A stretch of DNA of 32,415 nt, counting the filler, from Rhizodiscina lignyota (lineage: Eukaryota), in assembly GCA_010015805.1 (NCBI GenBank). It is 5 parts of 5 records of this genome, joined end to end, with 100 filler letters (N's around TTAATTAATTAA, not from the genome) between each part and the next. Parts side by side here need not be neighbours in the genome. Positions count along the whole stretch, not along the records: positions 1 to 21,011 come from ML978149.1; 4 more parts are not named here. One strand, given 5' to 3'. Under the pieces are notes generated by a model. That model saw nothing but the letters and a program-made list of their open reading frames with translations, was not told the origin of the DNA and did no database searches. Shown one piece after another: positions 481 through 32,250 of the stretch. Numbering within the stretch: the first letter of the stretch is position 1; every line of letters begins with the position of its first letter. A program made the position numbers and the translations under genes.

Positions 481-634
481 AAAACCGTGCGTTGAAAATT
501 CCCGTATCCGTAGGGAGTAATAGTATCTTTAGTCACCCTTAGGGCCTTTCAGTACGGAACTATGATTACATCGGCAAACACAACGCCTTAGGAAGCGCCC
601 ACTTCGGAACCGACCAAGTAAGGAACCCCCAGGT

Positions 635-1726
635 CTATAGAAAGCCCATGAAAGACGCAACCCATGGAAACTCCATAATCAATCTAATCATTACGCTGTT
701 CTCGTACCAAAGCATCCTGCCAGCTAAGCCTTCAAACACAATAACGGCAGCGTTCAGTGAAAACCAAGCAATGTCTTCCCACCATCCGCAGCTAAACGCA
801 AGGGACCAAGTGACCAGAGCGTGAACGAATCCCGAGAAAAGGAATATTATAACCACATTCAGTGCGCGAGAAAGATGTGTGCGATTTCTCAGACGTAAGA
901 GATAGCGCAGTACCAATTTGCTCAAGCAAATGTACGTTGGGCCAACGAGCTGGTGCCAGAAGCCACCCCAGAAACCGCGGACCGAACGAGTAGCGCGGAT
1001 ATCACCAAAAAGAGGGGGCCACTCTTGGGCAGAATCCAACTGTAGCACCCAGATGGCCACAAAAGCCATGATGCTGTGAAAAAGGTTGTCGACCAGCCAG
1101 GTGCTCAGAACAAAGTCTGCAACTAGCAATAGTCGGAGAATTCCTTCGCCAATTGTGATGTTTGGCAGTCGTCGGGCGAACTTCGTCTTTTCAGTCAGAC
1201 CAGCTGCATACATTCCATCCTTCTGGGCGTTCTGAACAACTTTGCTGGCCAAGGTAGGCGCGTATGTAAAGTATACGTAAACCCCAGCAGTGAAGAGCAA
1301 ACACCGTGTTAGCTGACGAATCCAGGAACTGCTGCTACTTGAGAGAGCGGTTCGTTCTGGAGATGGTTTCGACTCTGAATTGGCCGGCCTTTTTATCCTT
1401 CGAGGATTGAAGAGCATCTTATACGCCGCAAGCCACGAAGCTGGAGCGGGGAGGTTTGGCTCGATAGTGTACGCCTCAATCACCAGAACACAGGAAATGT
1501 GAAGTTGCCAAATCGAAAGAAACAGTAGTATGATTGATTTCAACACTTCGTGGATAGGAATGATGCGTACTTCTTGAAAAGTTGCCATCGTAAATATGCC
1601 GATAATAGAAAGTAGCATCCACCGAGATGCTAGGCCCGTGATACGTAGACCCACGAGCGCCGTAGAAGATGCAACTGCGAAGTAGCTTGAAGCCAATAAT
1701 AACGAAGATAAGAGTGTGGAAGCCAT
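635..1726 (-). CDS. Membrane-bound O-acyltransferase (MBOAT_2/wax-synthase, TRI7-like); C-terminally truncated by a premature TAG (ancestral stop probably at 566-568)
   Basis: Multi-TM protein with WPPLFG...SVRGFWGGFWHQ and FLFSGFVH motifs typical of secondary-metabolite MBOATs. ATG at 1726. The frame continues past TAG 635-637 as TWGFLTWSVPKW... Confidence 0.85.
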   Translation of the reverse strand: MASTLLSSLLLASSYFAVASSTALVGLRITGLASRWMLLSIIGIFTMATFQEVRIIPIHEVLKSIILLFLSIWQLHISCVLVIEAYTIEPNLPAPASWLAAYKMLFNPRRIKRPANSESKPSPERTALSSSSSSWIRQLTRCLLFTAGVYVYFTYAPTLASKVVQNAQKDGMYAAGLTEKTKFARRLPNITIGEGILRLLLVADFVLSTWLVDNLFHSIMAFVAIWVLQLDSAQEWPPLFGDIRATRSVRGFWGGFWHQLVGPTYICLSKLVLRYLLRLRNRTHLSRALNVVIIFLFSGFVHALVTWSLAFSCGWWEDIAWFSLNAAVIVFEGLAGRMLWYENSVMIRLIMEFPWVASFMGFL

Positions 1727-1980
1727 GTTTCCTTTAGTCGAGTAACTCAAAATGTACGATCTATTTCGATGATGAAATCAATGTTATCGGCAATAAGTTG
1801 CGAGAAACATTCGTTACCAAACAGAATGTCCATAATCTGATTTTCATTCCGCATTAATAAATAGTGGGTTCTACCACATCTCTAAGCAGCATGTTAATCT
1901 GCCATGCTTACAGCTGTTCACATTAATTGAGATTCATTGAGGTTGTGGCTCACCGGCACGACCTGCCTAGACTATCCTAT

Positions 1981-1994
1981 CGTACGGCCGTACG
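1981..1994. promoter_or_regulatory. 14-bp perfect palindrome CGTACGGCCGTACG in the divergent MBOAT/Sec11 promoter
   Basis: Self-complementary sequence containing CGG/CCG triplets, typical half-sites of Zn2Cys6 factors; the function is inferred only. Confidence 0.35.
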
Positions 1995-2350
1995 GAGTAC
2001 AAGCGCTACAATTTCGCATGATTCGGGTAAGGTCAGCGCTACTCCCTATGGCCGCGGCAGTTTTCAACCCATCAGCTGAAGAGACGATGTAGTCAATCAT
2101 GGGACTAGAAACTCTATCCTACTGAGTGTTTATTATGAGGATTCTGCCTATCTGACGTTTATTTGCCCGTTGAATATGCCCGTGGCGGCAGGGAGTAGCA
2201 GAGGTCGAGACTCGAGAGTGAAGCCGTCGGCGTCAGCTTCTCCTGCACCTATGTCTTCTAAGCGACGATTGAATCGTTTTCTCTGTCTCCATCTCCTATC
2301 TTCTGTGACTCTTATTGGATTCATTGAACTACACAGGTTCTGCGAAAGCA

Positions 2351-2875
2351 ATGTTGTCCTGCAAGTTCCTTCGACACATCCTCGTGTGTACCATTCTACC
2401 AATATCTGTTATTCTATTACAAAAACCACTACAATATGTGTCCCAGTCACGAACACCTATCGTTGTTGTAACATCAGGATCAATGGAACCAGTATTTTAC
2501 CGCGGAGACCTCCTCCTGGTATGGAATCGAGAGCAACACCTTCAAGTAGGCGACATCGCTGTTTGCTGGTTGCCCAGTGCAAAGCTTCCCATGGTTCACC
2601 GCATTATTGAAACGACAACAAAAGATTACGATCCAGCCCAGCAGCTGTTCCTGACGAAGGGCGACAATAACGTAGTCAACGATCGACAGCTCTATCCCGG
2701 CCAAAGGGCTTACCTTGACCGCTCTGACGTTGTAGGAATTGTCAAGGCTCACATTCCGTGGCTTGGGTGGCCGGCTGTTGCAATTAGTGAGATTTCTGGG
2801 CTAGAGGGACTTCTATGGTGCGTTTTGGGGTTGACAGTCTTCTTCTCTGGATGGCGAACAGTTGGCCAAAGCTGA
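2351..2875 (+). CDS. sec11: Signal peptidase complex catalytic subunit Sec11-like (peptidase S26B), divergent intronless paralogue
   Basis: N-terminal TM segment, PIVVVTSGSMEPVFYRGDLL (catalytic Ser), MVHR (His), FLTKGDNNVVND (Asp), C-terminal hydrophobic segment. First ATG at 2351. Confidence 0.9.
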   Translation: MLSCKFLRHILVCTILPISVILLQKPLQYVSQSRTPIVVVTSGSMEPVFYRGDLLLVWNREQHLQVGDIAVCWLPSAKLPMVHRIIETTTKDYDPAQQLFLTKGDNNVVNDRQLYPGQRAYLDRSDVVGIVKAHIPWLGWPAVAISEISGLEGLLWCVLGLTVFFSGWRTVGQS

Positions 2876-3220
2876 ATGTTTGTTCTTTACGCGGAACATG
2901 CAGCAGTCGGCCCGACAGGGATATGGTGCATTTTCGAGCTGACAATCTTCGTCTCTGAAGGGTGGCCGGTTGGCCTGAGCTGAATGTCTATTCTGGTATT
3001 TTGATGCAATCTTCTTCTTCCAGGGGCGAACAGTTAGCCGAAGCTGACTTTCTATTCTTGTACTTGCAGTTGATCAGTGATTGTGCCCGTCGACGTAGCC
3101 ATTCCTCACATAAAGAACAACACTGAGACGCTGTCACTCTATAGTGTGGCAACCAGACATAGGCTGGTTGAGAATACACTCTCTCAGGAGTCTATTTCCC
3201 CTTCTCTTTTGCTCAACGCA

Positions 3221-6200
3221 ATGTCCACCAATAGTTCGAACAAGTTGCGGTATTCTTCGATAGACTCACCAGATCTCAGAGAACCCGTCGCAATATGTGG
3301 CATGGCAACACGCTTGCCCGGCAACATAGCTTCCCCAGAAGAGCTATGGGACTTTCTCCTGAAGAAAAAAGATGCTCGAAGCAAGGTCCCAGAGAGTCGG
3401 TTCAATATTGAAGCTTTCCTAGATCCGATGGGCCGACCGGGGACCACGACTGTTGATGCTGGATATTTTCTCGATCCCTCGGCCGTTGACTTGGATAGCT
3501 TTGACCTCAATGCATTCTCGATGACTCGCGCTGAGGTCATGGATCTTGATCCGGTGCAGCGGCAGTTGCTGGAGATCGTTCGCGAATGCCTCGAGAGCGC
3601 CGGTGAGCCTGAATGGGAAAGGCATGATACTGGATGCTTTGTGGGGTCTTTCGGTCAGGACTGGGCAGATCTAACCGCAAAAGACAGTCAGGCGCATGGA
3701 ATATATCGGGTGACAGGATCGAGTGATTTTATGTTGAGCAATCGGATCTCCTACGAGTACGATTTTCGAGGACCTAGGTTGGTATTATCTCCCCCAAAAA
3801 CACTTGTCTATGGTCAAGTTCTAACAGCCGATCTTAAAGCGTCACGTTTAGAACTGCCTGCTCAGCGTCTATGGTTGCACTTCATGCCGCCGTCCAAGCT
3901 CTACGGACTGGCGACTGCTCTGCAGCAATCGTTGCGTCAGCGAATTTGATTACTTCACCCGCCCTCACCATAGGGCTGTCCGAGATTGATGCTCTGGCAC
4001 CTGATGCTTCTTCTAAAACATTTGATGAAAGTGCTGACGGATATGCGCGCGGTGAGGCTGTTAATGCAATCTACCTCAAGCGCCTTTCCGATGCTATCAC
4101 CGATGGCAGTCCCGTGCGAGCTATCATCCGGGGTACAGCATCGAACGCCGATGGAAGGACGCTGTCTATAACGAACCCAAATCACAAGGCGCAGGTGGAT
4201 CTGATTCGTCATGCGTACTCCAATGCTGGCTTATCTCTAGACGACACCACGTTTGTTGAGCTACATGGGACCGGAACTCAGGCAGGAGACTGTACTGAGT
4301 CTAACGCCGTAGCCGAGGTTTTCTCGACTCACCGTCATGGTCAGTATATAGGCTCAGGAAAATCTCCCCGTGGTGTTAAGCTTAATGACTTGGAAGCTGA
4401 TGAGATATTTAGGTCAAGCCGAATGTCGGCCATGCAGAAGGCGCATCGGGCCTCACAAGCATTATCGCAAGCGTTCTAGCTTTGGAGCACAAAACTATTC
4501 CACCGAATATCAAATTCGAAAACCCTAACACTAAGAGTAAGACTGCGCAAGCGCCGTACTGTTGTTGCGCTCTGCTAAATATCGATATAGTACCTTTCAA
4601 GAAGGCAAAGCTCATTGTCCCAACTGAACCAACTCCATGGCCAGCCAATCGTTACGAGAGAGTGAGCATCAACTCATTCGGGCTGGGAGGTGCAAATTCG
4701 CATGTAAGTGTATTCAACAATTCTCTTCCATGTTCGAATAACGTGATCTCACAGTCGTCGTGGTGCAGGTAATACTAGACTCGGCGGCATCATTCGGACT
4801 GTATCAGCAGCAACAGCGTGTTGCAACGTCCAATCAACATCTTCTACTTTCCTCCGGTCACAGCCAAGGTTCCACTAATGAGAACGTATCGCGCTTGATC
4901 GAATACATTCAACAAGGCCGACCTAGATTAGATGACCTGGCGTTTACTCTCGGTCGACGGCGACAACACCTCTCATATCGGTCTTATTGCGTGGTCAACG
5001 AACAGAGAATTATTATAACATCTCATCCAATCAAGGCTCACGAGACTGCGAAAGTAGTGATGGTCTTCACAGGTCAAGGTGCTCAGTATCCAGGCATGGG
5101 CAAAGAGCTGGCCGAAACGTACCCGAGCTTCGACAACGACCTCCGCAAATTCGATGCTATCTTGTCATCAATACCAAACCCGCCGTCATGGTCAGTAAGA
5201 GGTCAGTCATGAGCAGCGTTTTCTTTTTCATCAATCATGTGTTGACTCTTAGATAGACACCATACTCCACTCATCTGAATCATCAATGACAGGAGTCATC
5301 TCGCAACCGCTCTGTATCGCCATCCAGATCGGACTAGTAAATTTATTACGTTCATGGGGCGTTACAACAGAGGCAGTTATAGGTCATTCAAGCGGCGAGA
5401 TCGCGGCTGCGTATGCAAGCGGAGCGCTATCCATGGCTGATGCCATTAGTCTGTCATATCGCCGTGGTAATAGTCTGCCGTCCGGTGCGAACGGGTCTAT
5501 GGTCGTTGTAGGTCTTCCTAAAGCTGAGGTTTTGCCGTACATGTTACCCGGTGGGACTATTGGCTGCGAGAATAGTCCTGTGAATATCACGATTTCTGGA
5601 GATGGATCTGTTTTGGACTCTGTCGTAACAAGAATTCAGAAGGAGAAGCCGCAGACCTTCATTCGACGCTTGCCAGTTGACATGGCGTATCATTCTCGTA
5701 AGTTATACCATGTTTCATCTTTCATAGTCTCAATAAACTAACAGACAAAGACCATATGGAATCTATTTCGCATGTTTACATGCGCGCTGTTCAAGACCTC
5801 CAATACGGGACTCCAAAGGTTCCGATGTATTCTACAACATTAGGCCGCAAAGTACAGGAAGGAGAGATCCTCGGTGCGGCATACTGGAGAGCCAATCTTG
5901 TCCAACCTGTACTGTTTGATACAGCGATCCGAAGCATCCTTGATGACAGCACTCTGTCAGGACACAAAGTTTTTCTCGAGATCGGATCCCATTCCGCGTT
6001 ACGAGGAACATTGAGGCAATGCTTTCATCAGCATTTACGAGGTAGCCAGGCGACATATGTCGCTACCTTAGTCCGGAAAGAACCAAGCGATATGTCTCTG
6101 CTCAATACCTTGGGACAGCTGCATTGTCTCGGCACTTCTCTAGCGCTAGGTGCGATCTTCCCAACCAAACAAATCTTGACGGATTTGCCTCCATACTCTT

Positions 6201-9200
6201 GGAATCGAGAGAAGGTCATTAGGGAGAAACGTACCTCCAACGCATGGAGACATCGCAAATTTCCTCGACATGAGCTACTCGGCGCACCTGTTTTGGAGCA
6301 GAACGAACTTGAGCCGGTCTGGCGCAATGTCTTCCGCCTCCAAGATGTGTTGTGGATTCACGATCATCAGGTGGACTCCAATATAGTCTTCCCTGCTGCC
6401 GGATATGTTGCCATCGCCGGTGAAGCCATTAGACAGATTTGCGGTGGTACCATAGATGGCTACGATGTGCGACACCTTTCTGTCGCGGCGGCCATCATTC
6501 TTCGCGAAAACACAACGACGGAGATCATGACGAGCCTTAAACGAGCGCGGTTGTCGGATGCCGAAGTTTCATCGTGGCATGACTTTACCGTATCGTCCGT
6601 CCAGAAAGGCAACTGGGTCCAGCATTGTTGGGGTCAGGTCCGGGCTTCGACGCAGCCTCTGCATTCTGCCTTTTCTTCAGCCGTTGCAGTGCCTTTCTCA
6701 AGAAAGGTCTCGCCACAGAAGTGGTATCATGCTTTGAGTCGTACCGGACTACACTATGGGCCGGCATTTGCAAAGTTAAAGCAGATTTCGGCGGCTGTTG
6801 ACGAACATGCAGCGAGTGCGATGATTACTTACGACTGGCCAGCAGGCGCTGACTATATCCTTCACCCGACAGCTCTTGACTTGATATTTCAGACTCTACA
6901 GGTAGCTGATGTGCACGGAAAATCCACGAGCCTCTCCGGAATATTTGTGCCAACGTACTTGGAGGAACTCAGCGTGAGAAGATCCTCTTCCAAATTGTTT
7001 GTACAAGCCAATGTCCATTCATCCACCGCAACAGAAGGCGTCGGTATGAAGGGTTACTGTGTCGGTTGGGCAGATGGCGGCGGCGTCGTCGTCAAAGGGT
7101 CATGGTTTGCGCATGTCTCAGCTCAGCAACGGTTATGAAGATGCCAGGAGAGCCACAGACCTGATCACCGGGTCAGAAATGATCTGGATGCCGAGCTTGG
7201 AGTATCTGAGTAGCGAGGAAAAGAAGGGGCTGATCCTCACGACCCACGACGTCTCATCTGTCCAAGAAACATTGGAAGAGATGGCCTTATTGACAATGAG
7301 CCAGCACTTTGAAACTCTATGTGCACGAGAGGCGCGGAAACCTCATCTGGAGAAGTTTCGGCAATGGATACTTTCGACAGTACGAGAATTGCAAAAGTCT
7401 CACCATCCAGTGTGGCCTGGCCTCGAAGTGCCGGTCTCAGACTTGGATCTGAGTAAACCCAACGAAATCCATCTCGAAGAAAGAAAAAGGGCTCTACGAC
7501 ATGCAGTCACTCTTCGCGATCAAGCTGGTACCGGCACTGGCGCTGTCGATGTAGTGATACGTATTGGTGAATGCCTGTTGGATATCATAGATGACAAAGT
7601 CTCGACACTCGAGCTCCTCTCGGAAAACGACTTGTTTGGGAGATACTATCGCTTCGGGAAATTGTTCGACTACCGTCCATTCTTGAAGCACCTCATCCAC
7701 GAACGGCCAACATGCAACATCCTTGAAATCGGAGCCGGAACGGGCAGTATCACTGCTAGCATCCTACCAAATCTATACTCAAGTAATGGTAACCGCCTGT
7801 TCTCGACGTATACATTTACAGACATCTCGGAGGGGTTCCTGTCACTTGCAAAGAGCAACTTCCAGCAACACCACGGCATGAGATACCAGGTATTTGACAT
7901 AACTTTAGATCCCGATGGGCAAGGCATTCCAACACAATTCTATGACCTGGTCATTGCAAGCAACGTGGTCCATGCTACACCAGCTTTGCATGCATCCTTG
8001 ACCAATGTTCGGAAAGTGTTACAGCCTAGCGGATATTTGTTATTGCAGGAGCTCCGCAATGATTCATTCTATAACTCCTTCGTGATGGGCGGCTTGGAAA
8101 GGTGGTGGCTTAGAGGAGATGATGACAGAGAAGAAACGCCATACGTTGGCCCAGTAAAGTTGGCAGCCGAGTTGAAAAGGGCTGGATTTGCTGAACCTGA
8201 GATTTCATTAAGGGACCACCAGGATTTGCGCCCGGGAGCCATCAGCGCACTCCTGATTGCGCGTTCAAATGTTTACCAGCCGGCGAATGGTCATTTGGAG
8301 TCTGGAAAGGTCACAATTGTCGTCAACTCGGTTGATTTGGACATCGTCCGACTGATCGAAAACAATTTCGCCACGCATGGCATTATCGTCGATTTCTGTC
8401 AATTCGCACTGGGCGATATGCCTGCAAATAACCAGGACATGATCTCTCTCCTCGACATTGATGGCCCCTTCCTATTGGACATCAATGCTGACGATTTTGA
8501 GCGTTTGAAACACATTTTAACAACCATGGACCCCAACAGCCACCTTCTTTGGTGCACACAGTCGTCACAGTTCCCGGGCATGTCTCACGATCCGTCATAC
8601 GCACCTATACTTGGTTTAGCACGGAGCTCCCGATTCGAGCTTGGAATAGACTTCGCAACCCTTGAGACAGACCTTCCTCTCACTCCTTCGTTTGCTAAAA
8701 TGATTCCCTCTTTCTACACTAAGTATCGTGGGCATCGGGGTGTAGCAAGAGACGGAGGTTCTGGGACAGCAGACTATGAATTTGCATTTGCCAACGATAC
8801 TGTCCACATTGGCCGGCATGATTGGTACTCTTTAAAGTCAAAGAACTTTAACTCTGGCGAAGGTGTACCAATGGATGTTCGAACCCTTTCCATTAATCGC
8901 AAAGGAGCGCTTCAAACTCTGTGTTGGAAGGCGACGGGACATTTGACCCTATCTTCCAGCGATGTTAGAGTCAAAGTGGCGTATATTGGTCTGAATTTTC
9001 GGGTAACGTATATTCTGATGTGGGCCGTCGAGTTTGTGGACTTATTCGTATTAGGATTTGATGGTAGCCATGGGAGTCATTACTGCTGGTGATCTTGGAC
9101 TGGAGATGGTGGGTACCGTAGTTGAAGCTGGACCGGCGGTAATTCGGTTCAAACCTGGCGACCTCGTGGTGGTACTAATGCCTGGATGTTTTGGAACGGA

Positions 9201-11416
9201 AATTGTCGCTTCGGATCGACACTGTGTGCAGATACCAGACGGTCTCAGCTTTAAAGATGCTGCCTCCATGTATTCAGTATTCTGTACATCACTTCTGGCG
9301 CTGATCGATACCGGCAGGCTTCGAACCGGTCAGGTAAGGCACACAGAGGGAACTTTCTAGTAGCAGATGCTGATCAACTGTCACAGAGTGTGCTGATCCA
9401 CTCGGCATGTGGTGGTATTGGACTAGCAGCAATTCAGCTGTGCCAGTCCTTTGGAGTTGAGGTAAGATCAACTCTCTTAGATATATTGCTCGTGGAGACT
9501 AACGTGAGAAATAGACATTTGTAACTGTCGGAAACAAGAATAAAGCCAGGTACCTCCAAGAGCATTTCAAAGTCCCCTCGGATCACATATTCGATTCTCA
9601 CAGCACTTCATTTCGTGAGATGCTTTTAGCTAAAACACAGAATCGAGGTGTCGATCTCGTCCTCAATTCACTCGCAGGAGAGTTGCTTCAAGCTTCGTGG
9701 GATTGTGTTGCGGACTTTGGTATGCTTATCGAGCTCGGAAAGAGAGATATTCAGACGAGAGGCAAACTTGATATGTTCAATTTTAGCCACAATCGAGGAT
9801 ATTATGCTGTGGACTATGAGCAAATTCTCACAGACAAGCCTGGCGTAAACTTGAGGTATGTGCCTAGGTTGATGATTTTAGGTGAATAATTAATGACCAA
9901 TTAACTTAGGATCATGGAAAGAGTCTCGGACTTTTATCATCAGGGAATCATCAAACCACTTCCTCTGAAGGTGTTCCCGGCAAAGGAGGTTGAGCAATGT
10001 TTCCGAGCCCACCAAAAAGGAGAGCACATCGGCAAGTTACTCGTGGAAATGCCTGTTGATCCTTCCAATCTACCCGTGGATGGGAATCTGACCCAAAAAT
10101 CGATCGCTTTCGATCATACTGCAGCCTACCTTCTTGTTGGCGGTTTGGGTGGCATCGGTCGCTCTGTGGCAATCTGGATGGCCGAGCACGGAGCAAAGCA
10201 TATAATATTTGTTTCGCGTTCCAAAACGGCAGAGACAGCTAAGCAGGCGTACGCCAACTTCTTCGAAGAGCTCGAAGCCTTGAGCTGTGAGTACATTGTA
10301 ATCCATGGAGATATTACAGTCGCTGGCTTTGTGGAAGGAATCATCAATAAGACGACGATTGACATACGGGGCGTGCTTCAACTGGCGATGGAGTTGAACG
10401 ACAGCAGCCTTTCATCGATGACACACGAACAGTGGCAAGCAACCGTATCTCCGAAGGTCGCAGGAACGCTAAACATTCACAATGCATTTACGTCATCAAA
10501 TGCATTGCCGTTAGATTTCTTCGTCATGTTTGGTTCCCATAATGGATTGCATGGCTGGTTTGGGCAATCAAACTATGCAGCAGCAAACGCGTTCGTCGAC
10601 GCATTTGTCGAATATCGGCATCGACAGGGTTTGGCAGCGTCTGTAGTGGACCTGGGACCAGTAGACGACATTGGTTTCGTTAATGAGCGGCCGGAGGTGG
10701 CATCTAAGATGCGATCTACGTTCAAATACTTCCTGCCGGAGAAAGAGCTTCTTCACGCAACAGAGATTGCCATTGCAAGGTCAAATCCCTGAGACTTGCA
10801 GCCCATTTCAATAACCCAGTCGAAGTACTTCGCGTCGAACCGCAGCCAGATCATCGCCGGACTGAGGCCAAGCGTTGCACATGGCGAAAACGGCTCTGGA
10901 GACAGCAACCTTCCCTGGCAGGGAGATTCACGATTTCTTGCATTCCGAAATATTGAAGCTGATCTAGGGTCTGGATATGATATCAGCAGTCCAGGACCAG
11001 CGTCTGAGTCTAAAGACAAAGCACTCAGTTTTCTTTTGTCATTGTGCTCTCAAGAATCGTCAATATTGCACGAACAGCCCCTGCGGAGTATTCTGGTACC
11101 CGGTTGTGGGGAGCAGACGGCGCTTCAGGTTGTTTCTGGGGCCATATTCGACAGAATTTGTATATTCTTGGACCTCTCCGATACGAAGAAAGATGAGCTC
11201 GTGCAGCTTGCTGCGCCATCGTCAGTGTCCTTGTTAACCCTGGGCCTTGACTCTCTGGTGGCCATTGAGCTACGCAACTGGTGGAGACAGAGGCTAAGAC
11301 TTGAGATCTCGGTGCTTGAAATCATGGAGAAAAAATCCATTGAGAAATTGGCGCAACATGCACTAGATGGTCTGGCTGCTCATTTTCCTCAGTCAAATGG
11401 CCAGATAACGAGCTAG
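3221..11416 (+). CDS. Highly reducing iterative type I polyketide synthase KS-AT-DH-cMT-ER-KR-ACP (disrupted in this sequence: probable pseudogene, or base-call errors)
   Basis: [75 protein letters not shown]. c[57 protein letters not shown]. Introns inferred at 3778-3839, 4357-4412, 4537-4590, 4704-4768, 5202-5256, 5698-5750, 9003-9054, 9334-9386, 9462-9514, 9856-9909. Lesions at 4357, about 7097 and 10790. Confidence 0.95.
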
Positions 11417-11513
11417 TGTAGGGGACTCATATAGTTTCGTTTGAATACGAATTGATGATAAGATGTTCCGCTTTTGAATATGTGGAACATTATCGCTACG
11501 GTATTATTTGCGT

Positions 11514-12494
11514 CTAATGTAAAACAGGGAAGCATTTCTTGAACGATTCCCGCTCTCCCACCTTTGACCACCACAACTTTATCTTAGCCCCAATTGTGAA
11601 CCCATGATCAGATATTTGAAGGAGCTTCTCTAAAGGCTCGAAATCCGTCACCTGGCTTCCACCCGCACCCCACATTGCATGTGACAACCACGGAATGATA
11701 TGAAGATCCGCCAACGTTAGCTCATCTCCCGCTGCGTACGGAAGGACAAGAAGAGAGTCCAGTTGTTGCAAGCCAGCCGCAAAGTCGCGGAACATTGCAT
11801 CTGACTGTGTGAAAAAGGTCTGATGGTCTTCTCCGACTGGACTGTTATAGAGTTTGTTGACCGCTCCGTTCATGCGAATTCTTGGTTTGTAGAACGCGTC
11901 CAGCTCAGGATTCTCTCCACCATATTTCTCTAATTTGGCTTGTCGATTGCGCAAGAATTCGTTCCACATGCTGCTTTGCTTCTTCTCCATCTCTTCTTTG
12001 TTACGAGCATGCAACAGGATCAAGTTGGTGCCCATTTGATCGGAATGAACGAGACCAATGAGTCTCTGCATGACCTCACGCGTTCGAGTGTCTATTGGAG
12101 TCAATGAAGTCCCCGCCAGTCGCTGGTCGAGATAATTTAGGATCTCCGTCGAATCAACAAGAGGTTTTGGGAGGGACTTTGTCGTCAAGGATGGGATCGT
12201 TCCGTTTGGATTAATCTTCACATAGTCAGGATGGAAGTTCTCTCCGCCAACTAATCACCATTAGCATCTTCAAACTATTCTAAGGCGCACTACTCTTACA
12301 AAGGTCAATTTCTTCAATCTTGTATTCGTCTTCTTTCATGTCCTTCTCTGCAAGACCGAGTAGAGGAACGCCGGCCCATTGAGACGCTGTCGATGAATAC
12401 ACAGTAACCTTTGAATCATTTCCTGTTAGCCCTCAAATAGCCCAACAATGGACATCGCAACTGGCCATGGAAATCCTACCTGATTGTTTGCCAT
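11514..12494 (-). CDS. Glutathione S-transferase family protein
   Basis: Exons 12494-12480, 12408-12300, 12250-11514 with GT-AG introns. GENFHPDYVKINPNGTIPSL...DSTEILNYLD (GST-N) and GDELTLADLHIIPWL (GST-C). Confidence 0.9.
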
Positions 12495-13456
12495 TGTGCT
12501 GTGGTGTTGCGAATAAATCCTTCCCAGCCGGATTCTGTGAACAATATCGTACTAAAGATTCAAGATTTCTCCTTCTACACGACTTAAGGATTCAGTAACA
12601 TTTATATTTTATCATCTCGGACCTCTCCTCATAGCATACAGGTGCTTTGCCCTTCCTTCATCACCCCTGTAATCTGTTAGTCACTAGACTCCCATCCTAT
12701 TCTACTTTGGTATACACATTACGCATAGCTTCCACGACAGAGCCCTTCATCGTGCCAGTTTCTAAAGATATGTCAACAAAATAAAATTAATGTGCTTCCT
12801 CATCCACCTGCATGAGATCTGCAATACAGGATCATGAGGCTGAAACTCTATATTGAGGTCAGAAATTAAGCGGCAGTTGTCTTCGGTGAGGTCCTTGTAT
12901 TGCCAATGAACCAGGGAAAATAAGAATGGATTGGCCCCATTCATGAAGGAAGTTAGTGGAATTAGCTGCCCTGAGAATATCGCGCAAACTAGACATCCTT
13001 TTGGATGACAAAGGGCTCGGCCGCTAGACAAACTGTAATACAAAGAGTGATTATCTCTTACTCCGTGAAGCAATTGAGGCTATCTCTGAAAGTAAATTTG
13101 TATGTTCCTTGGCGTAAAGCAACAACAAATCATCAATAGGTTTATGCGCTTTGACGATCATAGAGGCTACACGCTATTGCTTTCCAATGTTTCGAAAGTG
13201 TGGCAACTTTGCTGTCACCCTCGAGACATGTTCAAGTTTAAAAATCGTATTTGAAAATTGCTGCAACTCCAAAACTCATTCAATCGAGACATTTCCATAG
13301 TATCCGCTCGAAGATATTGATTTCCACATACTATCGAGACAAGCCGCCGCGCAAAAATATATAACCAAAAAAGACCAGAAGAGAATATATAAAGGCCGCC
13401 TTTGTCCCCTGCTCTTAATCAACCCTGACATAACCTTGGAGATGGCGAGACGCGAC

Positions 13457-14596
13457 TTAGAATGCAGTCAAACCAGATGCGCCGTTGTTGACTGGCAGAC
13501 CCTGACCTCGTCCGAAAACTCCCAGATTCCTGAGCGAACCGTCATTTTCCACCGCCCAGCCTTGCACAGCGCCAGTCCCCCGCAAAAGATCATACAGAAA
13601 AGCTCCGTCCGCCGACACCGCAAGATCAACTGGGTTGCTGTCAATGCCGGGATTCGCAGCGACATCCTTGAGGATGCTGACCGCGCCGTTGGGGCTGACA
13701 GTGTAAGAGGCAATCGTGCCACTGACGAAGTTGGCAGTGAAAGCAAACTGCTGCTTGCGTCCAGCAAGTATGACCCAGCAGCCATCAGTCTGCTGATTCT
13801 TTTCGGACTTTGTGATGGGCTTCAGCGCCCCGGTCGAAGTATCAACGTGGTAGGTGGAAACTGCAGCGTTGGTGAAAACAGGAAGGCCAGATTCGACGAC
13901 GAAAAGCGTTCCATCCTCACGGAACTGTGCTCCGAAAGGACGGTTACCTGAAGACGCGCTGATGGTGATAGGGCCGGTTGCTTCGCCATTCCTGTCGATG
14001 TTGAAGAAGTCGATTGTGCTGCCCACTTTGTTTGTGACGATCAAGCCTTTGCCATCGGGGCTGAACTGAATGGTACCTGGGACGCCGATTGGGGTGCTGG
14101 TGGGAATCGTGGTGTTGCCAATCGCAGCGAGCTTGCCATCACGGCCCACCTCATAGCCTCGAATGCCAGTGGTCGCTACCGATCCGTCCAGAACGTAGGC
14201 AAAGCGCTCATTGAGGGTGATGCTCAAGGGCTGATCGCCTCCGTAGATGACTTGGATCCTCTCAAGACAGGAACCGGAGACGGAAAACACGCTAACCCTG
14301 TCGTCCGAGGGACTGATAGCATATAGGAAGCGGTGATCGCGGCTCAATTGTAATCCGCCTTGCGTATCAAAGTCGACTCCTTGACCTTTACCACCAGTAG
14401 AGTATTCCCCAGTCTGCGTGAGCTTGCCAGTGCGGTCTCGTGAGAATGCAATGACCTTGTTATCATCTGGTGCATTAGTCAACGCAAAAGCTGCACCAAC
14501 TTCACCGGAAGGCTTCCTGCAATGTATGTTTACTGCATGAACGACACTGGATGCGAATGCAAGAGCACCAATAATAGCAGTGACTGAAGGTCTCAT
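13457..14596 (-). CDS. Secreted beta-propeller lactonase-family protein (6-phosphogluconolactonase/cycloisomerase-like)
   Basis: Signal peptide MRPSVTAIIGALAFASSVVHA; repeated propeller blades (LSRDHRFLYA, FSPDGKGLIV, VSADGAFLY); intronless 379-aa ORF. Confidence 0.8.
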   Translation of the reverse strand: MRPSVTAIIGALAFASSVVHAVNIHCRKPSGEVGAAFALTNAPDDNKVIAFSRDRTGKLTQTGEYSTGGKGQGVDFDTQGGLQLSRDHRFLYAISPSDDRVSVFSVSGSCLERIQVIYGGDQPLSITLNERFAYVLDGSVATTGIRGYEVGRDGKLAAIGNTTIPTSTPIGVPGTIQFSPDGKGLIVTNKVGSTIDFFNIDRNGEATGPITISASSGNRPFGAQFREDGTLFVVESGLPVFTNAAVSTYHVDTSTGALKPITKSEKNQQTDGCWVILAGRKQQFAFTANFVSGTIASYTVSPNGAVSILKDVAANPGIDSNPVDLAVSADGAFLYDLLRGTGAVQGWAVENDGSLRNLGVFGRGQGLPVNNGASGLTAF

Positions 14597-16092
14597 TGTG
14601 ACTGTATTAACAAAATGATTGAAACGGGTAATGAGTAATGGAGAAATGTATATTATAGAGCGTTCCGTCTAGACAATGGAATTTAGATTAGGATAAAGAC
14701 GTTGGAAAGAAGAATCGACGGCCCAACCTCTATTAAAGGAAAGGAGACGCCCCTGAAGAAGAATTCATGTCTCCAAGAAAGCGTCTACGATTCCAAAGCC
14801 GCCATTGACGCGAGCATTGTGGCTTGTGGAAGGTTGTATACATTGTACGTAAAAATGCTTCTGTCAGCGGGTCCTGGAGAATGCACATTCAATCTTTGAT
14901 GAGGATCATCTGGATCTAGTGAAAGCTACTTCCTCGACTCAAACAAGATTGATTATTTGAGCGATTGACCATTTTGGGCCATCGATACGTTGGTGCTTGT
15001 ATGAATCAGGCGGCAGGTGCCCGGACAGACCCATCGCAGAGTGAAGTGAACAATGAGGTGATCGCCGACCACAATGGCGTGGCATTAATTTTTACGTAGC
15101 TTCAAAGGTTGAGAGCTGGAAGGCATACGGGTGTCGAGGGCCAAAATAGTACCATGGAGGTCTGCCATATTCTCCCCGATAATATACGTTACGTCAAATT
15201 CCTAATCACGAGGCTTGGTCTTCCTTTCTCTTCAAGAATGCTTATATAAGCTTTTTACGACAGTCAGGCTTTGAATTCGGACGCCAATTCTCTCTGGCTA
15301 CACTGCCTTTTACGCATTGACAAAGCTCTGGGCCCTTGCTCTCCCTTCGGATCGACTGTGCAAGTTCATATTCGCTGGGATCACGGGCGGTGCAGTTAAC
15401 ATCCCGAGCAGAGGAGACGAACGCACCGGAACGTGGTCCTCGCGGATGAGCTGAAGGCAACCTAAGTGTAAGGAGGTCGCGGGAGACCAGGAACCGTGTT
15501 CGGGGAAAGGGGACTTTGAAGGAGGTGTGTGTGGTGTTCTGGTCTGGTCGGAACTCGTTCGGCTACTTCCGTTTGGCACCTGTTGGCTTGGCAATGAGGC
15601 AAAGGATTCTTCTGCGCGAGTAAAGGCTGCGAGCTTAATCAAAGGACTCTCATATACCTCAGAATGCAGTTATCGGGTCCAAGAGAAACTCTAAGAACTC
15701 AATTTGCGATAGTATAAGATCTTGCTTGCTTCGGATTACCGCTCGCTTGGACTCCGGACTGGAAGGCAGTTATGTACGCATTGTATTTGCGCGCTTTGGA
15801 TTCTCCCCACAGGTTTTCAATCATGCAAGGAGCCGCATCTCTCTATTTATGATTCAGCTCCATGGATGGCACTCTGGGACGTGACAAAACGTGTGCTGGA
15901 TTCGTTGCTAGACTTCCATTTGGTTGTTGTCGTTCCAATTGCCGACCCCGTCATTTCCTAGATCCAATATGATCTTGCTCCCCAGTAAGCCACAGTATTC
16001 TGTGCTGGACTAAGCTAAATCGTAACTGTAGTTCTCTTCGTGGAAGATATCTCAGACCAAATAAACGGGTTCGGTACTATGAGAAGCGCATC

Positions 16093-16983: not shown

Positions 16984-17287
16984 GCATTTTGTTTCACAGT
17001 CGAACGCTCAAAGCATTCATGCGAGATGAAAATAAGCTTTAATCGAAACCCGTAATAATTGAGACGCCACCGGGAATGAAATCATGGAGAGCTCAATATG
17101 TACGGAGAAAGTCCAGGTCTACCGCAGGATGAATTTGATCGCGACATCTCCGTCTGACCGAACAGTTCAAAGTCACCGAAGAACTTAAATACCTTCTCAT
17201 GTTGCCATAATACTCAAAGACTCAGCTTGTCTCTCTCTCGCATCTCCATCTCAGCCACAAACATTTCCATCTTCCAAGCTCTTCATC

Positions 17288-18172
17288 ATGTTTCACGTCA
17301 AGGCCGCTTGCATTTTTCTTCTCGCACAAACACTCATTGCATCTCCTATTGACTTGGAAGCAAGACAGAGCTGCCCAAACATTCATGTATTTGGCGCTCG
17401 AGAGACGACTGCTCCAGCCGGTTATGGATCTTCTGGCACGGTGGTCAACTTGATCCTCAACGCTCATCCCGGAGCGACCTCCGAAGCCATCAATTACCCG
17501 GCGTGCGGAGGACAGAGCAGCTGCGGCGGTGTTAGTTATGCAAACTCGGTTGTTCAGGGAATCAGTGCTATTACCAGCGCAGTGAATTCGTTCAACAGTC
17601 GTTGTCCGAGTACGCAACTTGTTTTGGTCGGCTACTCACAGGTACGCGTCGAGGAATTTTCTTGCTCAAGAAACACCTGCAGGTTTACAAGGCACTGACA
17701 AACACATGCAGGGCGGTCAAATCACAGATGATGCTCTGTGTGGCGGCGGAGATCCAAACGAGGGATACTCCAGCACGGCCGTCACCTTCTCCGCATCAGC
17801 ATTGAACATGATTAAAGCAGCCATATTCATGGGAGATCCTCGCAATGTCGCTGGACTCTCATACAATGTTGGTACTTGCGCTGCCGGCGGAGTAAGTGTC
17901 CATGTCTTATCCCACTTGCACTTCCATCCCTGGTTTCTGCATTCTCCCATCGGTCTTGCGTCAATGTGAAATGGAATTCCCTTGCTGACCAGTTGCTCCA
18001 GTTTGACGCCCGTCCGGCTGGATTTTCTTGCCCGAATGCCAGCAAGATCAAATCGTACTGCGACTCCTCGGATCCGTACTGCTGTAATGGCAACAATGCT
18101 GCAACTCACCAAGGATACGGCAGCGAGTACGGCCAAGCAGCATTGACCTTCGTCAACAGCAAGCTGTCATAA
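17288..18172 (+). CDS. Secreted acetylxylan esterase, CE5/cutinase family (Axe2-like, no CBM)
   Basis: Signal peptide; CPNIHVFGARETTAPAGYG, GYSQG nucleophile motif across an intron, FMGDPR, YCDSSDPYCC, HQGYG. Exons 17288-17641, 17712-17891, 18002-18172. Confidence 0.93.
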
Positions 18173-19372
18173 CCCTGGACGATCATGGATTAACCAAAGC
18201 CTTCGTCTGCGTGCTCTTTTGATCCCTTATGACTCTTAATGCCCGGAAGCAGGCGAAGGTATGGCGCTCAATCCTGCATGAACATTGGTTTCCCTGTATA
18301 TATCTTGATGTAAATACGAGCTTGCGATCCAACATACATACAAGCATGGATCCATCGGCACAGAGACCTTTTCCAACTGAGGAGGTCTGTTGTTGCAGAG
18401 CCACAGGTTGATCAGCCACTGATCAAACTTGACAATGTAATCCGTCGCTCAACTGATTGATCCCCACTGCGAACAAGCGTGGACTCATTAAATACGTTGT
18501 TTCTATTGTTAGATAGTGATACCAAACGTGCTCTCTTAACCTTTGACACGACTCCGGAAGCTCAGAGGTCCTGCTCTCGCTCACAAATACTTGTGAACTT
18601 GTGCGACCTCGTTGAGACCTCGTTGAGAATATCATCTGTTAGCAGAGTTTTGGAGAAGCTCTAATTTGATTAGACTCGTCACAGCCTATAGGAATTCGGC
18701 CCATATCCAAAGGCTGCTCGATGATGAATAGAGAGGTAAGTGTATCCTCATCTTCCTTCCTTTTGCGGATGATTCATTCTACAGCCCTCGTGCAAGATTG
18801 ACGAAGGAGGAAAAGACCACGAATCAAGCATTCCTCGCACAGCAATAAGGAAAGCGAAGGGCCTTCCATAGATTGATAAAGTTCGTCAAGGTTAACTCTT
18901 CTTGAATCAACGATTTGGCTATTTGACTTTGTGTTGACGGTTCTCGGTGCCAGCTCGTGCGCGATGTGAACGTCGCTCGAATAGCTGTATAAACTTCCGC
19001 AACGTCATGAAATTCCGCGTCGCAATAAATCATCTCAATCCAGTATACTCTATTTGAGTTCATCTCAAATTATTATTGTCCAAAAGAAGCTTTTTCGGCC
19101 GTAGAGCTGTGAAAAGGGAAGATTACTGATCGTGCTGCGGAATAGTGAACATCTTCAACGTCGACGCAGGTTCACGCTCGCAACACAGGCAATTTATGCT
19201 GAGTGATCGTTTCTCCGCATCTGAGATCATTCCAAGGTTATTTGCGCCTTTTTGATACCTCGGTCGTAAGCTCGATTTTCTGCGCTGAAATTACGAAACG
19301 CGTCGTGGAACTCTTCTCGTCCGGCTTTCGAGATATTGAAAGACGACCATTTCACAGACAGAAGGTATCACA

Positions 19373-20245
19373 ATGGCAGAACTTCGTGCAGCAGTTTATA
19401 TTGCACCGCCGATTCTATTTGCTTCGCCCAGCGGTAAAGGCAAAGGCGGCGTCTGGTCGCCGATTTCATGCACTCTTGTTTACGCTGCCAATGAAGCTGT
19501 TCTTGTCGACACACCGATTACCATCAAACAAACCGAAGAGCTGATAAGTTGGATCAAACGAATTGCGCCCGGCCGCAAGCTGTCGTACATCTACATCACG
19601 CACGGACATGGAGACCACTTCTTCGGAATCCCACAGCTGTTAAAAGAGTTCCCAGAGGCGGTGGCTGTTGCAACAGCAGGGACAGTGGCACATATGGAAC
19701 AGCAGATCCAAGAGAAGGAGTATCATGATACATGGGAAGTCCGCTTCCCCGGACAAATCTACCGACCATTCAAGCTTGCCGATCCATTACCGTCGAGGAA
19801 CGAATTTCGCCTTGCGAATCGCTGGCTTTTCCGCGCCATTGAGTGCGGCCACTCAGATACATACTCGTCCACAGCGCTTTGGCAACCCGATCTCAAGCTC
19901 GCCGTCTGCGGTGACGTGGTGTATGGACAGGTGCACCAGATGCTGGGTGAGGCGAACACAAAGACCAAGCGTGAAGAATGGATTCGAGCGGTCGAGAAGA
20001 TCGAAGCACTCGATCCAGCATATGTCGTGCCAGGCCATTGTCAAGCAGAGGAGATCCATGGCGCGTGGCACCTTACGAATACAAAGAAGTATCTTGTCGA
20101 TTTTGGAGAAGTGCTAAAGACTGCGAAAGACCGAAGAGCGGTTATCGAAGGCATGAACAAATTGTATCCTGACCGATTCAATCCTGCTGCGTTGATAATG
20201 AGCGCTGTTCGCGCGTTCGAGGTGCCAAAGAAGGCTAGGATTTAA
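19373..20245 (+). CDS. Metallo-beta-lactamase-fold hydrolase
   Basis: AVLVDT, YITHGHGDHFFG (HxHxDH), GHSD, CGDVVY, VVPGH; intronless 290-aa ORF. Confidence 0.9.
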   Translation: MAELRAAVYIAPPILFASPSGKGKGGVWSPISCTLVYAANEAVLVDTPITIKQTEELISWIKRIAPGRKLSYIYITHGHGDHFFGIPQLLKEFPEAVAVATAGTVAHMEQQIQEKEYHDTWEVRFPGQIYRPFKLADPLPSRNEFRLANRWLFRAIECGHSDTYSSTALWQPDLKLAVCGDVVYGQVHQMLGEANTKTKREEWIRAVEKIEALDPAYVVPGHCQAEEIHGAWHLTNTKKYLVDFGEVLKTAKDRRAVIEGMNKLYPDRFNPAALIMSAVRAFEVPKKARI

Positions 20246-20279: not shown

Positions 20280-21011
20280 AGAGCAAATCTAAAGCGAATT
20301 TAAGTCGATTTAAGAGCGATTTCTAAGTAGCTTAAAAAACTTTTAAAGCTACTTAAGTATTCTACTCTAAAACGTGTTATATTCCCGTAACTTTACCTAC
20401 CTACCCTCCTTATTACTACCCTAGAACGCGTCGCCTTCCTAATTTTACTTACCTACCCCTTATATTATATATATAGATTATATCGCGATTTACTACCCTT
20501 TAGGAACCTATTATAAATCCTTTTCCTCTTTTCTTCCTTTTCCTCCCCCTAAATCTAGGCTTATATAGCCTATATACTATATACCTATCTATACTTAATA
20601 ATAACTACTTTAACTACTATTATACTATTAATTTAATTATACTAATCTTTTTTTTAATCTCTTTTATATTTACTTACTTACTTATTCTTTCTTTTTCTCT
20701 CTCTTTCTTTCTAAGCTTATTATCTCTTAAAAATAATATTTTAAGCTCTTATTAATAAAACTAAGCTATTTAGCTACTAGGACTCTTTTATAAGTATAGA
20801 CTAATACGTATATTCGCTCTAGTTACTATGTAACTACAAGTTGTTTTAGTAGCTAGTATATAGTCCTCCTCCTAAAACTATATATTTAGATCCCTACTAA
20901 AACCTTATATTATCTAAAAGTAACTAAACTAATCTATACTTTTATAACGCTCTTTTTTAACTAGTCTAATAATATTAGCGTACTTAAAGAGTAGTAGTAG
21001 TAGAAAGAGTA
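20280..21011. mobile_element. RIP-degraded repeat of unresolved family
   Basis: Abrupt shift to AT-rich, TpA-rich sequence right after the MBL stop codon; no intact ORF. Confidence 0.6.
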
Positions 21012-21111
21012 NNNNNNNNNNNNNNNNNNNNNNNNNNNNNNNNNNNNNNNNNNNNTTAATTAATTAANNNNNNNNNNNNNNNNNNNNNNNNNNNNNNNNN
21101 NNNNNNNNNNN
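21012..21111. other. Scaffold gap with artificial TTAATTAATTAA linker
   Basis: 44 N + TTAATTAATTAA + 44 N. Confidence 0.97.
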
Positions 21112-27100: not shown

Positions 27101-27765
27101 AGTTCTACTATAGGTTCTTCCTTAACTAACGACTAGGGCAACTATTAAATAGCCTTCTAAACTTAATAATACGTCTTATTATCTACTTAAATCCCTAATC
27201 TTCTCCTCCTTTTCTTATTTCGTAGCTTTGACGCTTTAGCCCCTAGCCGCGCTACGCGCGCACGCCCGCCCGCCCGCCCTACTTAAAACACGTAACTACG
27301 AAACTACTTTCGTACTATAGAAACAGGCGCGTACTACCCTATTAACCTACTATATTTAACTACAGCTTACCCGCCTTTAACTATAATATACTACCTACTA
27401 TCCTACCTACCTACTACGTCCGACCGCGACTTGTTTTACTTACTACATACTATACTAAACTACTAATCCTGCTTAGATCACGTAACCGCGAACACGAAAA
27501 CTCCTGCATACCGCGGACTACAGCTATAACGTAATAACGTACTATAACCCTAATAGTTCTAACTGCATGGCCGGGTTAGGCGCGGCTAGGACTATATTTC
27601 TACACGCTTAAAACCCGCCCCTAGGCGCTACTTTACTACTTTCTCGCAAATTAGGTTCGACTCTAAACCCTAAATCGGTCCGACCCCCTCCTTATCCTAC
27701 TAGCGCTAAATTTGTTAGCAGGCTTAAATCAGTTCGACTCGAACCGGTCGTATAGTACGAGTTAG
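21112..27765 (-). mobile_element. RIP-inactivated helicase-encoding element (telomere-linked-helicase-like)
   Basis: Long strand-biased RIPed coding relic. A candidate 5' terminus at 27765 is defined by comparison with the copy at 32321-32415. Confidence 0.75.
21382..27066 (-). pseudogene. RIP-mutated ~1900-codon ORF: DUF3505-like Zn-finger region, central domain, RecQ-family helicase
   Basis: After reverting C>T/G>A changes the minus strand reads ICRRCRYA..HL...H and WLRRAGWARHLEG near 26360-27050. Walker A ATGEGKSLLF at about 23460-23490, VVIDECH at about 23205-23225, ATNALGLGVD at about 22600-22635, QESGRAGRDG at about 22513-22545. Confidence 0.85.
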
Positions 27766-28144
27766 CTTAGTATATACTAGGCTATAAGATATAGTTAAGC
27801 GTATACTAGTTTTTAACTAGTTACTACTAAGTAGAGTAGAGGCTAGGTACACGGAAAAAATTCGTACTAGCTTATATAAAGATAAGGTCGTAATTAAGGT
27901 AGCTTTAGCTACTAATTATTATAGTTAAGTAAGGTAGAGTAGTATAAACTAAGTATTAAAGTAAAGAGTATATTAATCTAACTATTATAAGTAGCTACTA
28001 ACGATATAAATACTAGCTATAGCTAGCTTATACCTACCTAACTAATACTAACTTAAAGGAATCTATAATATTTACTTACTACTAAGCTATATCTAGTTCT
28101 ATATATTAGTAAGAAAGGATATACTAAGAAAATAAAAATCCTAG

Positions 28145-28244
28145 NNNNNNNNNNNNNNNNNNNNNNNNNNNNNNNNNNNNNNNNNNNNTTAATTAATTAA
28201 NNNNNNNNNNNNNNNNNNNNNNNNNNNNNNNNNNNNNNNNNNNN
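28145..28244. other. Scaffold gap with artificial linker
   Basis: N44-TTAATTAATTAA-N44. Confidence 0.97.
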
Positions 28245-29778: not shown

Positions 29779-29878
29779 NNNNNNNNNNNNNNNNNNNNNN
29801 NNNNNNNNNNNNNNNNNNNNNNTTAATTAATTAANNNNNNNNNNNNNNNNNNNNNNNNNNNNNNNNNNNNNNNNNNNN
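29779..29878. other. Scaffold gap with artificial linker
   Basis: N44-TTAATTAATTAA-N44. Confidence 0.97.
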
Positions 29879-31372: not shown

Positions 31373-32219
31373 ACCTGGATGCGCAGGACCGGCTGGGCTG
31401 ACACGTTTGCTGGTGCCGATCGCTACTTGCTCCGGCGCCTTACTGACCCTCCCACTCCGCACGGCTATAGCCTACTGCTCAGCCGCCCCGGCACGGACGA
31501 GATTTGCAGTAGCGCTGAGGACGAGCAGGCCCTTGCCGTGATTGGTCGTGCTGTCGACTGCTTCTTCGATCGGTGCGAGGATACTGCGCGGAACACAGGC
31601 CACTCGGCCCGCTGCTGGCTTCGAAGCCAGGTCTCTGGGAGGCCGTATAAGGCGCCATTTGAGCTACCGGCACGGGAGAGTACTAGAAGAAGGTACCGAG
31701 GGCTGTGGAAGAGGCTCGTATACTTCTTAGCCCGCCTATATCGCCTTGACAGCGGAGTACGCGGAGAGCTGCTTGGCGTACAGCTTTCAGACGGCCAGCG
31801 AAGGGCTATAGAGCTGGTATGGGTGGCCGCCTCGCGACTTGAGCTGGACGGCCCAGCGGGTCAGCTACTACAGACGACAATGGGAGGTCAAGGCCTATAC
31901 TTTCCATCGCTGCGCCGTAACCCAGAAACCCTTGCCGCCTCTGATAGCAAGAGCTCCGGTCGCTCAGGGCTGATTATCTACCGTCGTCAGAGCCATTCAA
32001 GGCTATTAAAGGGTGGTTCCGCCGCCGCCGCCGCCGCCGCCGCAGCAGCAGCAGCAGCAGCAGCGGCGGCGGCGCTATCCCCAGACAGAGAGGGTGATGA
32101 GCTAGAGAGCCCGCTGGAACTATCCGACGAGACTAGCTCGAACGCTAGCGGCGATGAGACTACAGCTGCTAGTGCTGGCGAGCGTGATTCAGAGAAAGCT
32201 TACTCAAGTAGCGACAGTA

Positions 32220-32250
<31 letters not shown>

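Follow-up and report, generated by a model that had tools for sequence, protein, structure and literature searches.

Introduction

Duplicates of the target enzyme within fungal biosynthetic clusters are an established pattern of self-resistance. HMG-CoA reductase in statin clusters, the IMPDH MpaF in the mycophenolate cluster and the DHAD AstD for aspterric acid are such target duplicates; a proteasome subunit for fellutamide B and RPL10 for ligustrone A are said to be further examples. To our knowledge, few inhibitors of the eukaryotic signal peptidase have been described, namely cavinafungin and, recently, nanchangmycin. Here we analyse a 32,415-nucleotide stretch of DNA (filler included; hereafter the window) from Rhizodiscina lignyota (Dothideomycetes, Aulographales; assembly GCA_010015805.1), in which the gene for a divergent Sec11-like signal peptidase paralogue lies between an acyltransferase gene of the MBOAT family and a gene for a highly reducing polyketide synthase (HR-PKS).

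One source places inhibition by cavinafungin, a fungal lipopeptide aldehyde, at the substrate cleft of SEC11A (PMC11721386), and another reports that nanchangmycin, a bacterial polyether polyketide, binds SEC11A and blocks the complex (PMC12569634). Flavivirus polyproteins depend on signal peptidase, and its inhibitors are therefore of interest as host-directed antivirals (PMC11721386, PMC12569634). Since natural products, one of them a polyketide, are described there as inhibiting it, Sec11 is plausible as a target (PMC11721386, PMC12569634). The accessible portions of the two articles do not mention a biosynthetic cluster with a Sec11 copy.

The literature searched (full texts, with few subscription journals and without supplements) ties no Sec11 or signal peptidase copy to a fungal cluster or to self-resistance, which agrees with the original prediction for this locus, where no characterised PKS cluster with this set of genes was known. 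FunARTS or ARTS-DB may list the gene described here without comment. Target-directed self-resistance is known as a kind; signal peptidase as the target, and the paralogue clade described below, appear to be new.

The original prediction had read the Sec11-like gene as a candidate self-resistance gene, and had proposed that the cluster makes or made a compound directed at the signal peptidase complex. We consider its observation confirmed, with corrections as to the stop codon ahead of the ACP and the GST-like gene (see below), and its interpretation partly supported. The interpretation is not refuted, because a separate SEC11 exists in this genome and the linkage of the paralogue to the synthase recurs in a second locus. 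By analogy with the systems named above, we give about an even chance to the reading that the clustered gene would confer self-resistance against a signal peptidase inhibitor.

Conserved linkage of three genes

The features of the locus in the window are as follows.

635-1726, minus strand: MBOAT_2 wax-synthase-like membrane acyltransferase gene (363 aa, intronless; Pfam PF13813; ATG at 1726)
1727-2350, no strand: intergenic region of 624 bp from which the MBOAT and Sec11-like genes diverge
2351-2875, plus strand: gene without introns for the divergent Sec11-like paralogue of signal peptidase (174 aa; "PMVHR type")
3221-10792, plus strand: HR-PKS with KS-AT-DH-cMT-ER-KR (12 exons, 11 GT-AG introns; equal to the deposited model P0122)
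10790-10792, plus strand: in-frame TGA in the KR-ACP linker of the PKS, at the end of P0122
10793-11416, plus strand: open stretch past the TGA with linker and ACP (same frame, 207 codons; DSL serine motif kept)

This layout bears out the arrangement that had been predicted. The Sec11-like gene is an open reading frame of 174 aa in which all four catalytic residues are found, it has no intron in the window, its stop lies 345 bp ahead of the PKS start codon at 3221, and the MBOAT gene diverges from it across 624 bp.

Scanning JGI metagenome contigs with P0242, the PKS of Cenococcum geophilum 1.58, returned a single locus (L001), which is Cenococcum-like and 16,392 bp long. It holds three genes.

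1490-2683, minus strand: MBOAT_2 gene (by Pfam)
4730-5322, plus strand: Sec11-like gene (172 aa, one GT-AG intron of 74 nt)
6335-14274, plus strand: PKS gene (97% identical to C. geophilum P0242)

The order and orientation of MBOAT (minus), Sec11-like (plus) and HR-PKS (plus) are the same in the window and in L001; hence the linkage of paralogue and PKS, which the original prediction had expected in other species, is found in a second fungus. The three genes are the only convincing stretches common to both loci, low-complexity matches aside. The latter pair L001 1-238 with the AT-rich tract of the window at 21-26.3 kb and with 32123-32278, and the remaining matches are a dozen fragments of 12-69 residues, all below 27 bits. 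Comparison of the four intergenic regions of the two loci for words of 7 to 10 nt yielded none that all of them share. Two further open frames accompany the genes of L001, one of 181 codons at 3225-3767 (plus) and one of 224 codons at 14713-15384 (minus); both lack a Pfam match, and the window contains no counterpart of either.

The best non-self match of the Sec11-like protein is P0003 (43% identity), found on 24 contigs, and that of the PKS is P0123, on 25 contigs; the longest contig measures 40,320 bp in both cases. For the MBOAT protein the best non-self match is P0332, whose 90% cluster includes the MBOAT_2 protein P0481, likewise on 25 contigs with a longest one of 40,320 bp. These shared Logan contig statistics of P0003, P0123 and P0481 suggest, indirectly, that the triad is present in a third organism.

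The acyltransferase frame at 635-1726 matches MBOAT_2 (PF13813) with 62.4 bits and an E-value of 5e-17 (cut-off 25 bits), and some sources label its relatives as "wax synthase domain-containing protein". The deposited gene model P0331 (192 aa) spans only residues 172-363 of the 363-aa open frame; it looks truncated, because the orthologues align to nearly all of that frame. MBOAT proteins of the window and of the linked orthologues share 36-39% identity, the L001 copy being at 36%. The second-best MBOAT relative, with 39% identity, is P0333, a JGI/IMG metagenome protein of 392 aa that occurs on 2 contigs (longest 21,001 bp) and may mark a further copy of the cluster.

The Sec11-like paralogue and canonical SEC11

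A search with the Sec11-like protein of the window gave 1836 matches at E ≤ 1e-3 and shows it to be a clear homologue of Sec11. The catalytic Ser (S-x-S-M-E-P), the His (V-H-R) and the two Asp (G-D-N-N-x-x-x-D) are all present, as had been noted before. PF00717 (Peptidase_S24/S26) is reached with 21.6 bits, which is under the cut-off of 23.3; we regard this as a weak criterion, because many canonical Sec11 entries also come without a precomputed Pfam domain. Hydropathy places hydrophobic segments at residues 6-25 and 151-168. An AlphaFold2 model, computed from an alignment of 24 sequences and with a pLDDT (predicted local distance difference test) of 91.5, shows corresponding helices at residues 2-31 and 151-172. 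The best PDB matches of this model are human SEC11C (7p2q_A, E 6.5e-11) and SEC11A (7p2p_A), with template modelling (TM) scores of 0.79-0.81 normalised to target length. The look-alikes in the ESM Atlas are SEC11 clusters, and the fold matches include 9nlo, a structure of P84A LepB with an inhibitor.

A separate, canonical SEC11, on which the idea of an additional copy turns, is present in the genome. It was looked for with a profile of eight canonical Dothideomycete Sec11 sequences, which gave 6080 matches at E ≤ 1e-20 among 8000 scored candidates, the best 120 being listed. The canonical sec11 of R. lignyota is P0262 (167 aa, canonical motifs present), located on a separate contig of 1,870,748 bp and 40% identical to the cluster copy over 163 residues. 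In C. geophilum 1.58 the canonical protein is P0255. The canonical Sec11 proteins of R. lignyota and Cenococcum are 89.8% identical, whereas the linked paralogues are 41-43% identical. Both Sec11 forms also occur in Xylona heveae (P0008 and P0061).

We compared residues in 121 sequences, i.e. the best 120 listed relatives of the window protein and the L001 protein. A divergent pattern is displayed by 14 of them, and 107 are canonical, the latter spanning fungi, animals and an oomycete. The divergent proteins are those of the window, P0003, L001, Alyxoria varia, Xylona heveae, Mycoblastus sanguinarius and Penicillium capsulatum, one ENA protein, and six from Xylariales. Although the catalytic residues (nucleophile Ser, His, two Asp) are conserved in each of the 14, four other positions set them apart from the canonical proteins.

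Position -3 from the nucleophile: Leu in 107/107 canonical; Leu in 0/14 divergent (Val, Thr, Ile or Ser)
Position -1 from the nucleophile: Gly in 106/107 canonical; Gly in 1/14 divergent (the window protein)
Two residues before the His: Ile in 106/107 canonical; Met in 14/14 divergent
Trp position: Trp in 0/107 canonical; Trp in 14/14 divergent

In the window protein, Thr stands at -3 of the nucleophile and Met at the position two ahead of the His, while the canonical Gly at -1 is still there. The departures from the Sec11 consensus on which the original prediction had remarked are therefore real, with Thr at a position (-3) where every canonical sequence has Leu.

A maximum-likelihood tree was computed from 53 sequences, comprising all 14 divergent and 39 of the 107 canonical proteins, with the other 68 canonical ones left out. 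The divergent proteins form one clade (support 100/99), within which the window protein groups with P0003 (100/97) and this pair with the L001 protein (98/89), so that the PKS-linked copies form a subclade. The placement of the divergent clade next to that of canonical Pezizomycotina Sec11 is weakly supported (90/46). Its end branches measure 0.24-1.5, apart from five close Xylaria/Xylariales entries with 0.05-0.41, and canonical Pezizomycotina do not exceed 0.27; long-branch effects on the placement of the divergent clade cannot be excluded. As judged from these sequences, the clade is probably old and fast-evolving, and appears to predate the PKS clade. A second, fast-evolving Sec11 lineage across several filamentous ascomycete classes is undescribed in the literature searched, and is of interest whatever its role in resistance.

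The polyketide synthase and its in-frame stop codon

The deposited PKS model P0122 (KAF2092354.1, 2323 aa) was found as a match to the window with 98% identity, and the spliced coding sequence of the window translates into exactly this protein. The 11 introns, each of them GT-AG, measure 38-65 nt, and a plausible branch site can be recognised in the shortest one (4375-4412, 38 nt). Frame changes along the gene were considered as signs of decay and rejected, as splicing of the introns yields P0122 exactly. By Pfam, KS, AT, DH, cMT, ER, KR and ACP are all encoded at the locus, without a release domain. However, the TGA at 10790-10792 parts the ACP from the KR, and P0122 ends without an ACP. The ACP beyond the TGA is matched by PP-binding (E 2e-7) and also by ACP_SdgA_C, and a frame-2 high-scoring segment at 9518-11401, which includes the stretch past the TGA, is 50% identical to P0124.

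Orthologues of the PKS are P0123 (46%, Logan) and, with 44-50% identity, P0124 (44%, Logan) and P0242 of Cenococcum; the 90% cluster to which P0124 gives its name includes P0242, from C. geophilum 1.58. Beyond the two Logan proteins, which are the nearest non-self relatives, identity drops to about 32%. The domain set of P0242 is complete, ACP included, and the Cenococcum PKS and its cluster look intact at the level of sequence.

A single sequencing run, X1 (DNA), was found for the locus. Over 6924-12600 its Logan contig, at a depth of about 154, has zero differences from the window; therefore the TGA is not an assembly slip. X1 is probably the assembly's own sample, which makes it uninformative on other isolates. 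In the same re-assembly, the sequence splits into pieces of 59-61 nt at window positions 6834-6953, where minor variants of depth 5-13, with one differing letter each, stand beside a main form of depth about 150. Either variation at low frequency or a second, diverged copy of a short stretch within the DH region could account for them.

We think it rather probable that the PKS is inactive in this strain of R. lignyota; its inactivation would be recent, because the rest of the gene is undamaged. An explanation that goes further, and which we also regard as somewhat more likely than not for this genome, takes the whole R. lignyota locus as a relic in decay. On this view the PKS no longer works, its Sec11-like and MBOAT neighbours survive undamaged only because little time has passed since the loss, and nothing is made or resisted. 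The agreement of the re-assembled reads on the TGA argues for it, as does the frame past the TGA, which offers no ATG ahead of the ACP motif and thus no ATG-initiated reading frame for the ACP. No convincing in-frame intron spans the stop codon either. Among 119 in-frame GT/GC-AG pairs of 30-300 nt across the TGA, only 10780-10845 (66 nt) combines a near-typical length with a GT donor; that donor, GTCAAA, is weak, and the residues removed would partly align with the orthologues. A large, G-poor and AT-rich tract without Pfam matches lies nearby (see below). On the other hand, this 66-nt candidate could bypass the TGA, the 7.5-kb PKS gene has no other lesion and retains all 11 introns intact, the 207 codons past the TGA are still open and conserved, and the probable origin of X1 leaves it silent on other isolates. 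A relic of this kind would be confined to the genome of R. lignyota and is compatible with any other reading elsewhere.

The original prediction had left it open whether the cluster makes or made its product. The past tense is the likelier one, because the TGA removes the ACP unless it is bypassed; for production by R. lignyota at present, the severed ACP speaks against the prediction.

A putative self-resistance gene

Several lines of evidence fit the pattern of a duplicated target, because a housekeeping copy exists elsewhere in the genome and the second copy is catalytically complete, because positions near the catalytic residues that are otherwise invariant have been altered in a fast-evolving protein, and because the linkage to a synthase and an acyltransferase has been kept while the surroundings changed. 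Based on this pattern we infer that the product would inhibit signal peptidase and that the paralogue may protect against it.

The following mechanism may be envisaged. The PKS (KS-AT-DH-cMT-ER-KR-ACP, no release domain) would build a methylated, reduced acyl chain, and the MBOAT_2 enzyme would take this chain off the synthase or esterify it. The resulting product would inhibit the canonical Sec11 of competing eukaryotes, and the producer would express the clustered Sec11 variant for its own protection. This variant, changed beside the catalytic Ser and His, would take the place of the housekeeping subunit within the complex and would itself be insensitive to the product. In R. lignyota the cluster is probably inactive now, owing to the TGA before the ACP.

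More tentatively, and with somewhat less than even confidence, we hypothesize that the three-gene unit encodes an inhibitor of the eukaryotic signal peptidase complex, which would be the first fungal one of polyketide type, along with a dedicated catalytic subunit that is insensitive to it, and that the PMVHR-type Pezizomycotina clade (Xylariales, Xylona, Alyxoria, Mycoblastus, Penicillium capsulatum, Cenococcum, Rhizodiscina) consists of drug-insensitive subunits that travel with biosynthetic genes.

Four observations weigh against self-resistance. The main weakness is that the divergent clade is wider than the PKS clade, extending to Xylariales, Xylona, Alyxoria, Mycoblastus and Penicillium capsulatum; for this reason the function of the paralogue may be older than the PKS and unrelated to it. 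In R. lignyota itself, the TGA leaves the PKS without its ACP. The window copy retains the canonical Gly at -1, which the 13 other members of the clade lack. Finally, no protein named after Cenococcum occurs among the 120 Sec11-like matches listed; the Sec11-like gene of the L001 type may be unannotated in the Cenococcum reference genome.

The lack of a release domain in the PKS raises another explanation, to which we give little credence: the Sec11-like protein could be an enzyme of the pathway, a membrane-anchored Ser/His hydrolase with a lumenal active site that works together with the MBOAT enzyme in the membrane of the endoplasmic reticulum. It would hydrolyse or process an intermediate, for example by releasing or trimming an ester- or amide-linked polyketide conjugate. 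Both proteins are predicted membrane proteins, the clade is old and fast-evolving, and the residues that have changed lie on either side of the nucleophile and His, where a shift in substrate specificity would be expected to leave its mark. However, activity on small molecules is not described for any S26B peptidase in the literature searched, and the entire Sec11 architecture has been kept, including both helices, which are membrane-sited in the human complex. Moreover, an acyltransferase alone can offload the product of an HR-PKS, as in LovD-type release.

Similarly improbable is a specialised signal peptidase isoform for particular secreted proteins, linked to the PKS and MBOAT genes because of common regulation or as inherited synteny. 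In its favour, the clade extends across Pezizomycotina and is apparently older than the PKS clade, catalytic residues and fold are intact, and Xylona heveae has both forms. Against it, the three genes keep order and orientation across two orders of Dothideomycetes at 36-50% identity with flanks that are not shared, and a patchy distribution (14 of the 121 compared sequences) is unlike that of a general housekeeping isoform.

If the broader reading of the PMVHR-type clade is true, every one of its members would point to a producer of a signal peptidase inhibitor. The conserved cluster with its own altered Sec11 would then offer a testable route to a new chemotype via target-directed genome mining, and the clade, as a natural set of active-site variants, could show how signal peptidase escapes inhibition. 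For experiments, the intact cluster of the Cenococcum type would be a better system than that of R. lignyota.

Neighbouring genes and flanking sequence

Downstream of the PKS, the window holds a gene resembling glutathione S-transferase (GST) and three further genes.

11514-12494, minus strand: GST-like gene with introns, convergent on the PKS (weak Pfam matches; start codon and first intron read from the sequence)
13460-14668, minus strand: lactonase-type beta-propeller gene, downstream of the GST-like gene
17189-18169, plus strand: cutinase gene, intron-split, downstream of the GST-like gene
19340-20242, plus strand: metallo-beta-lactamase-fold gene, downstream of the GST-like gene

The Pfam matches of the GST-like gene are GST_N_2, with 26.5 bits at a cut-off of 25, and also GST_N_3 and GST_C. 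The original prediction had placed its stop 97 bp from that of the PKS; this distance holds for the ACP-containing PKS frame, which stops at 11414-11416, and not for the deposited PKS, which ends at 10790-10792. It had also counted the gene as part of the cluster. A GST-like gene is indeed present here, but the 2.1 kb downstream of the PKS in L001 contain no counterpart, and because of this we treat the gene as a neighbour that is not shown to be a cluster member. Queries with the lactonase, cutinase, metallo-beta-lactamase-fold and GST genes on L001, which covers 6.3 kb upstream and 2.1 kb downstream of its PKS, gave matches with E > 0.2 only. The lactonase, cutinase and metallo-beta-lactamase-fold genes are likewise not shown to be cluster members, since L001 has no counterpart of them.

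Window positions 20300-30000 form a long AT-rich tract with a GC content of 0.24-0.42, most pronounced at 21000-27000. Its GC skew is -0.5 to -0.7, the plus strand being nearly free of G, and it contains no open reading frames that match Pfam. A short tandem array with a unit of 21-24 nt lies inside it at 22953-23028. The tract may be a repeat degraded by strand-biased C-to-T mutation, similar to repeat-induced point mutation.

Comparison with known systems

Canonical Sec11, including SEC11A and SEC11C (MEROPS S26B), and the paralogue have in common the fold, the Ser, the His and the two Asp, both helices, and a length of about 170 aa. Unlike canonical Sec11, which is about 90% identical between orders, the paralogue is 40% identical to the copy of its own species, has replaced neighbours of the active site, and lies beside a PKS gene.

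The locus resembles the target-duplicate genes of fungal clusters in that a divergent extra copy stands beside the core synthase, with a housekeeping copy elsewhere and a linkage conserved across species. It differs from them in that the target would be the signal peptidase complex, and in that the copy belongs to an old, wide clade and is not a recent duplicate. Cavinafungin and nanchangmycin are the inhibitors closest to the proposed product with regard to the target; neither of them comes from a cluster with HR-PKS and MBOAT genes.

A further parallel is found in bacteria. Natural resistance of the bacterial type I signal peptidase to arylomycin, a lipopeptide inhibitor, resides in Pro84 of E. 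coli LepB, in the strand just upstream of the catalytic Ser. By analogy, the paralogues differ from canonical Sec11 in the strand that would correspond to it, the one preceding the catalytic Ser, from which a similar mode of escape may be inferred. LepB itself belongs to S26A and has a Ser/Lys dyad, and its resistance is a substitution in the single housekeeping gene, unlike the clustered second copy described here.

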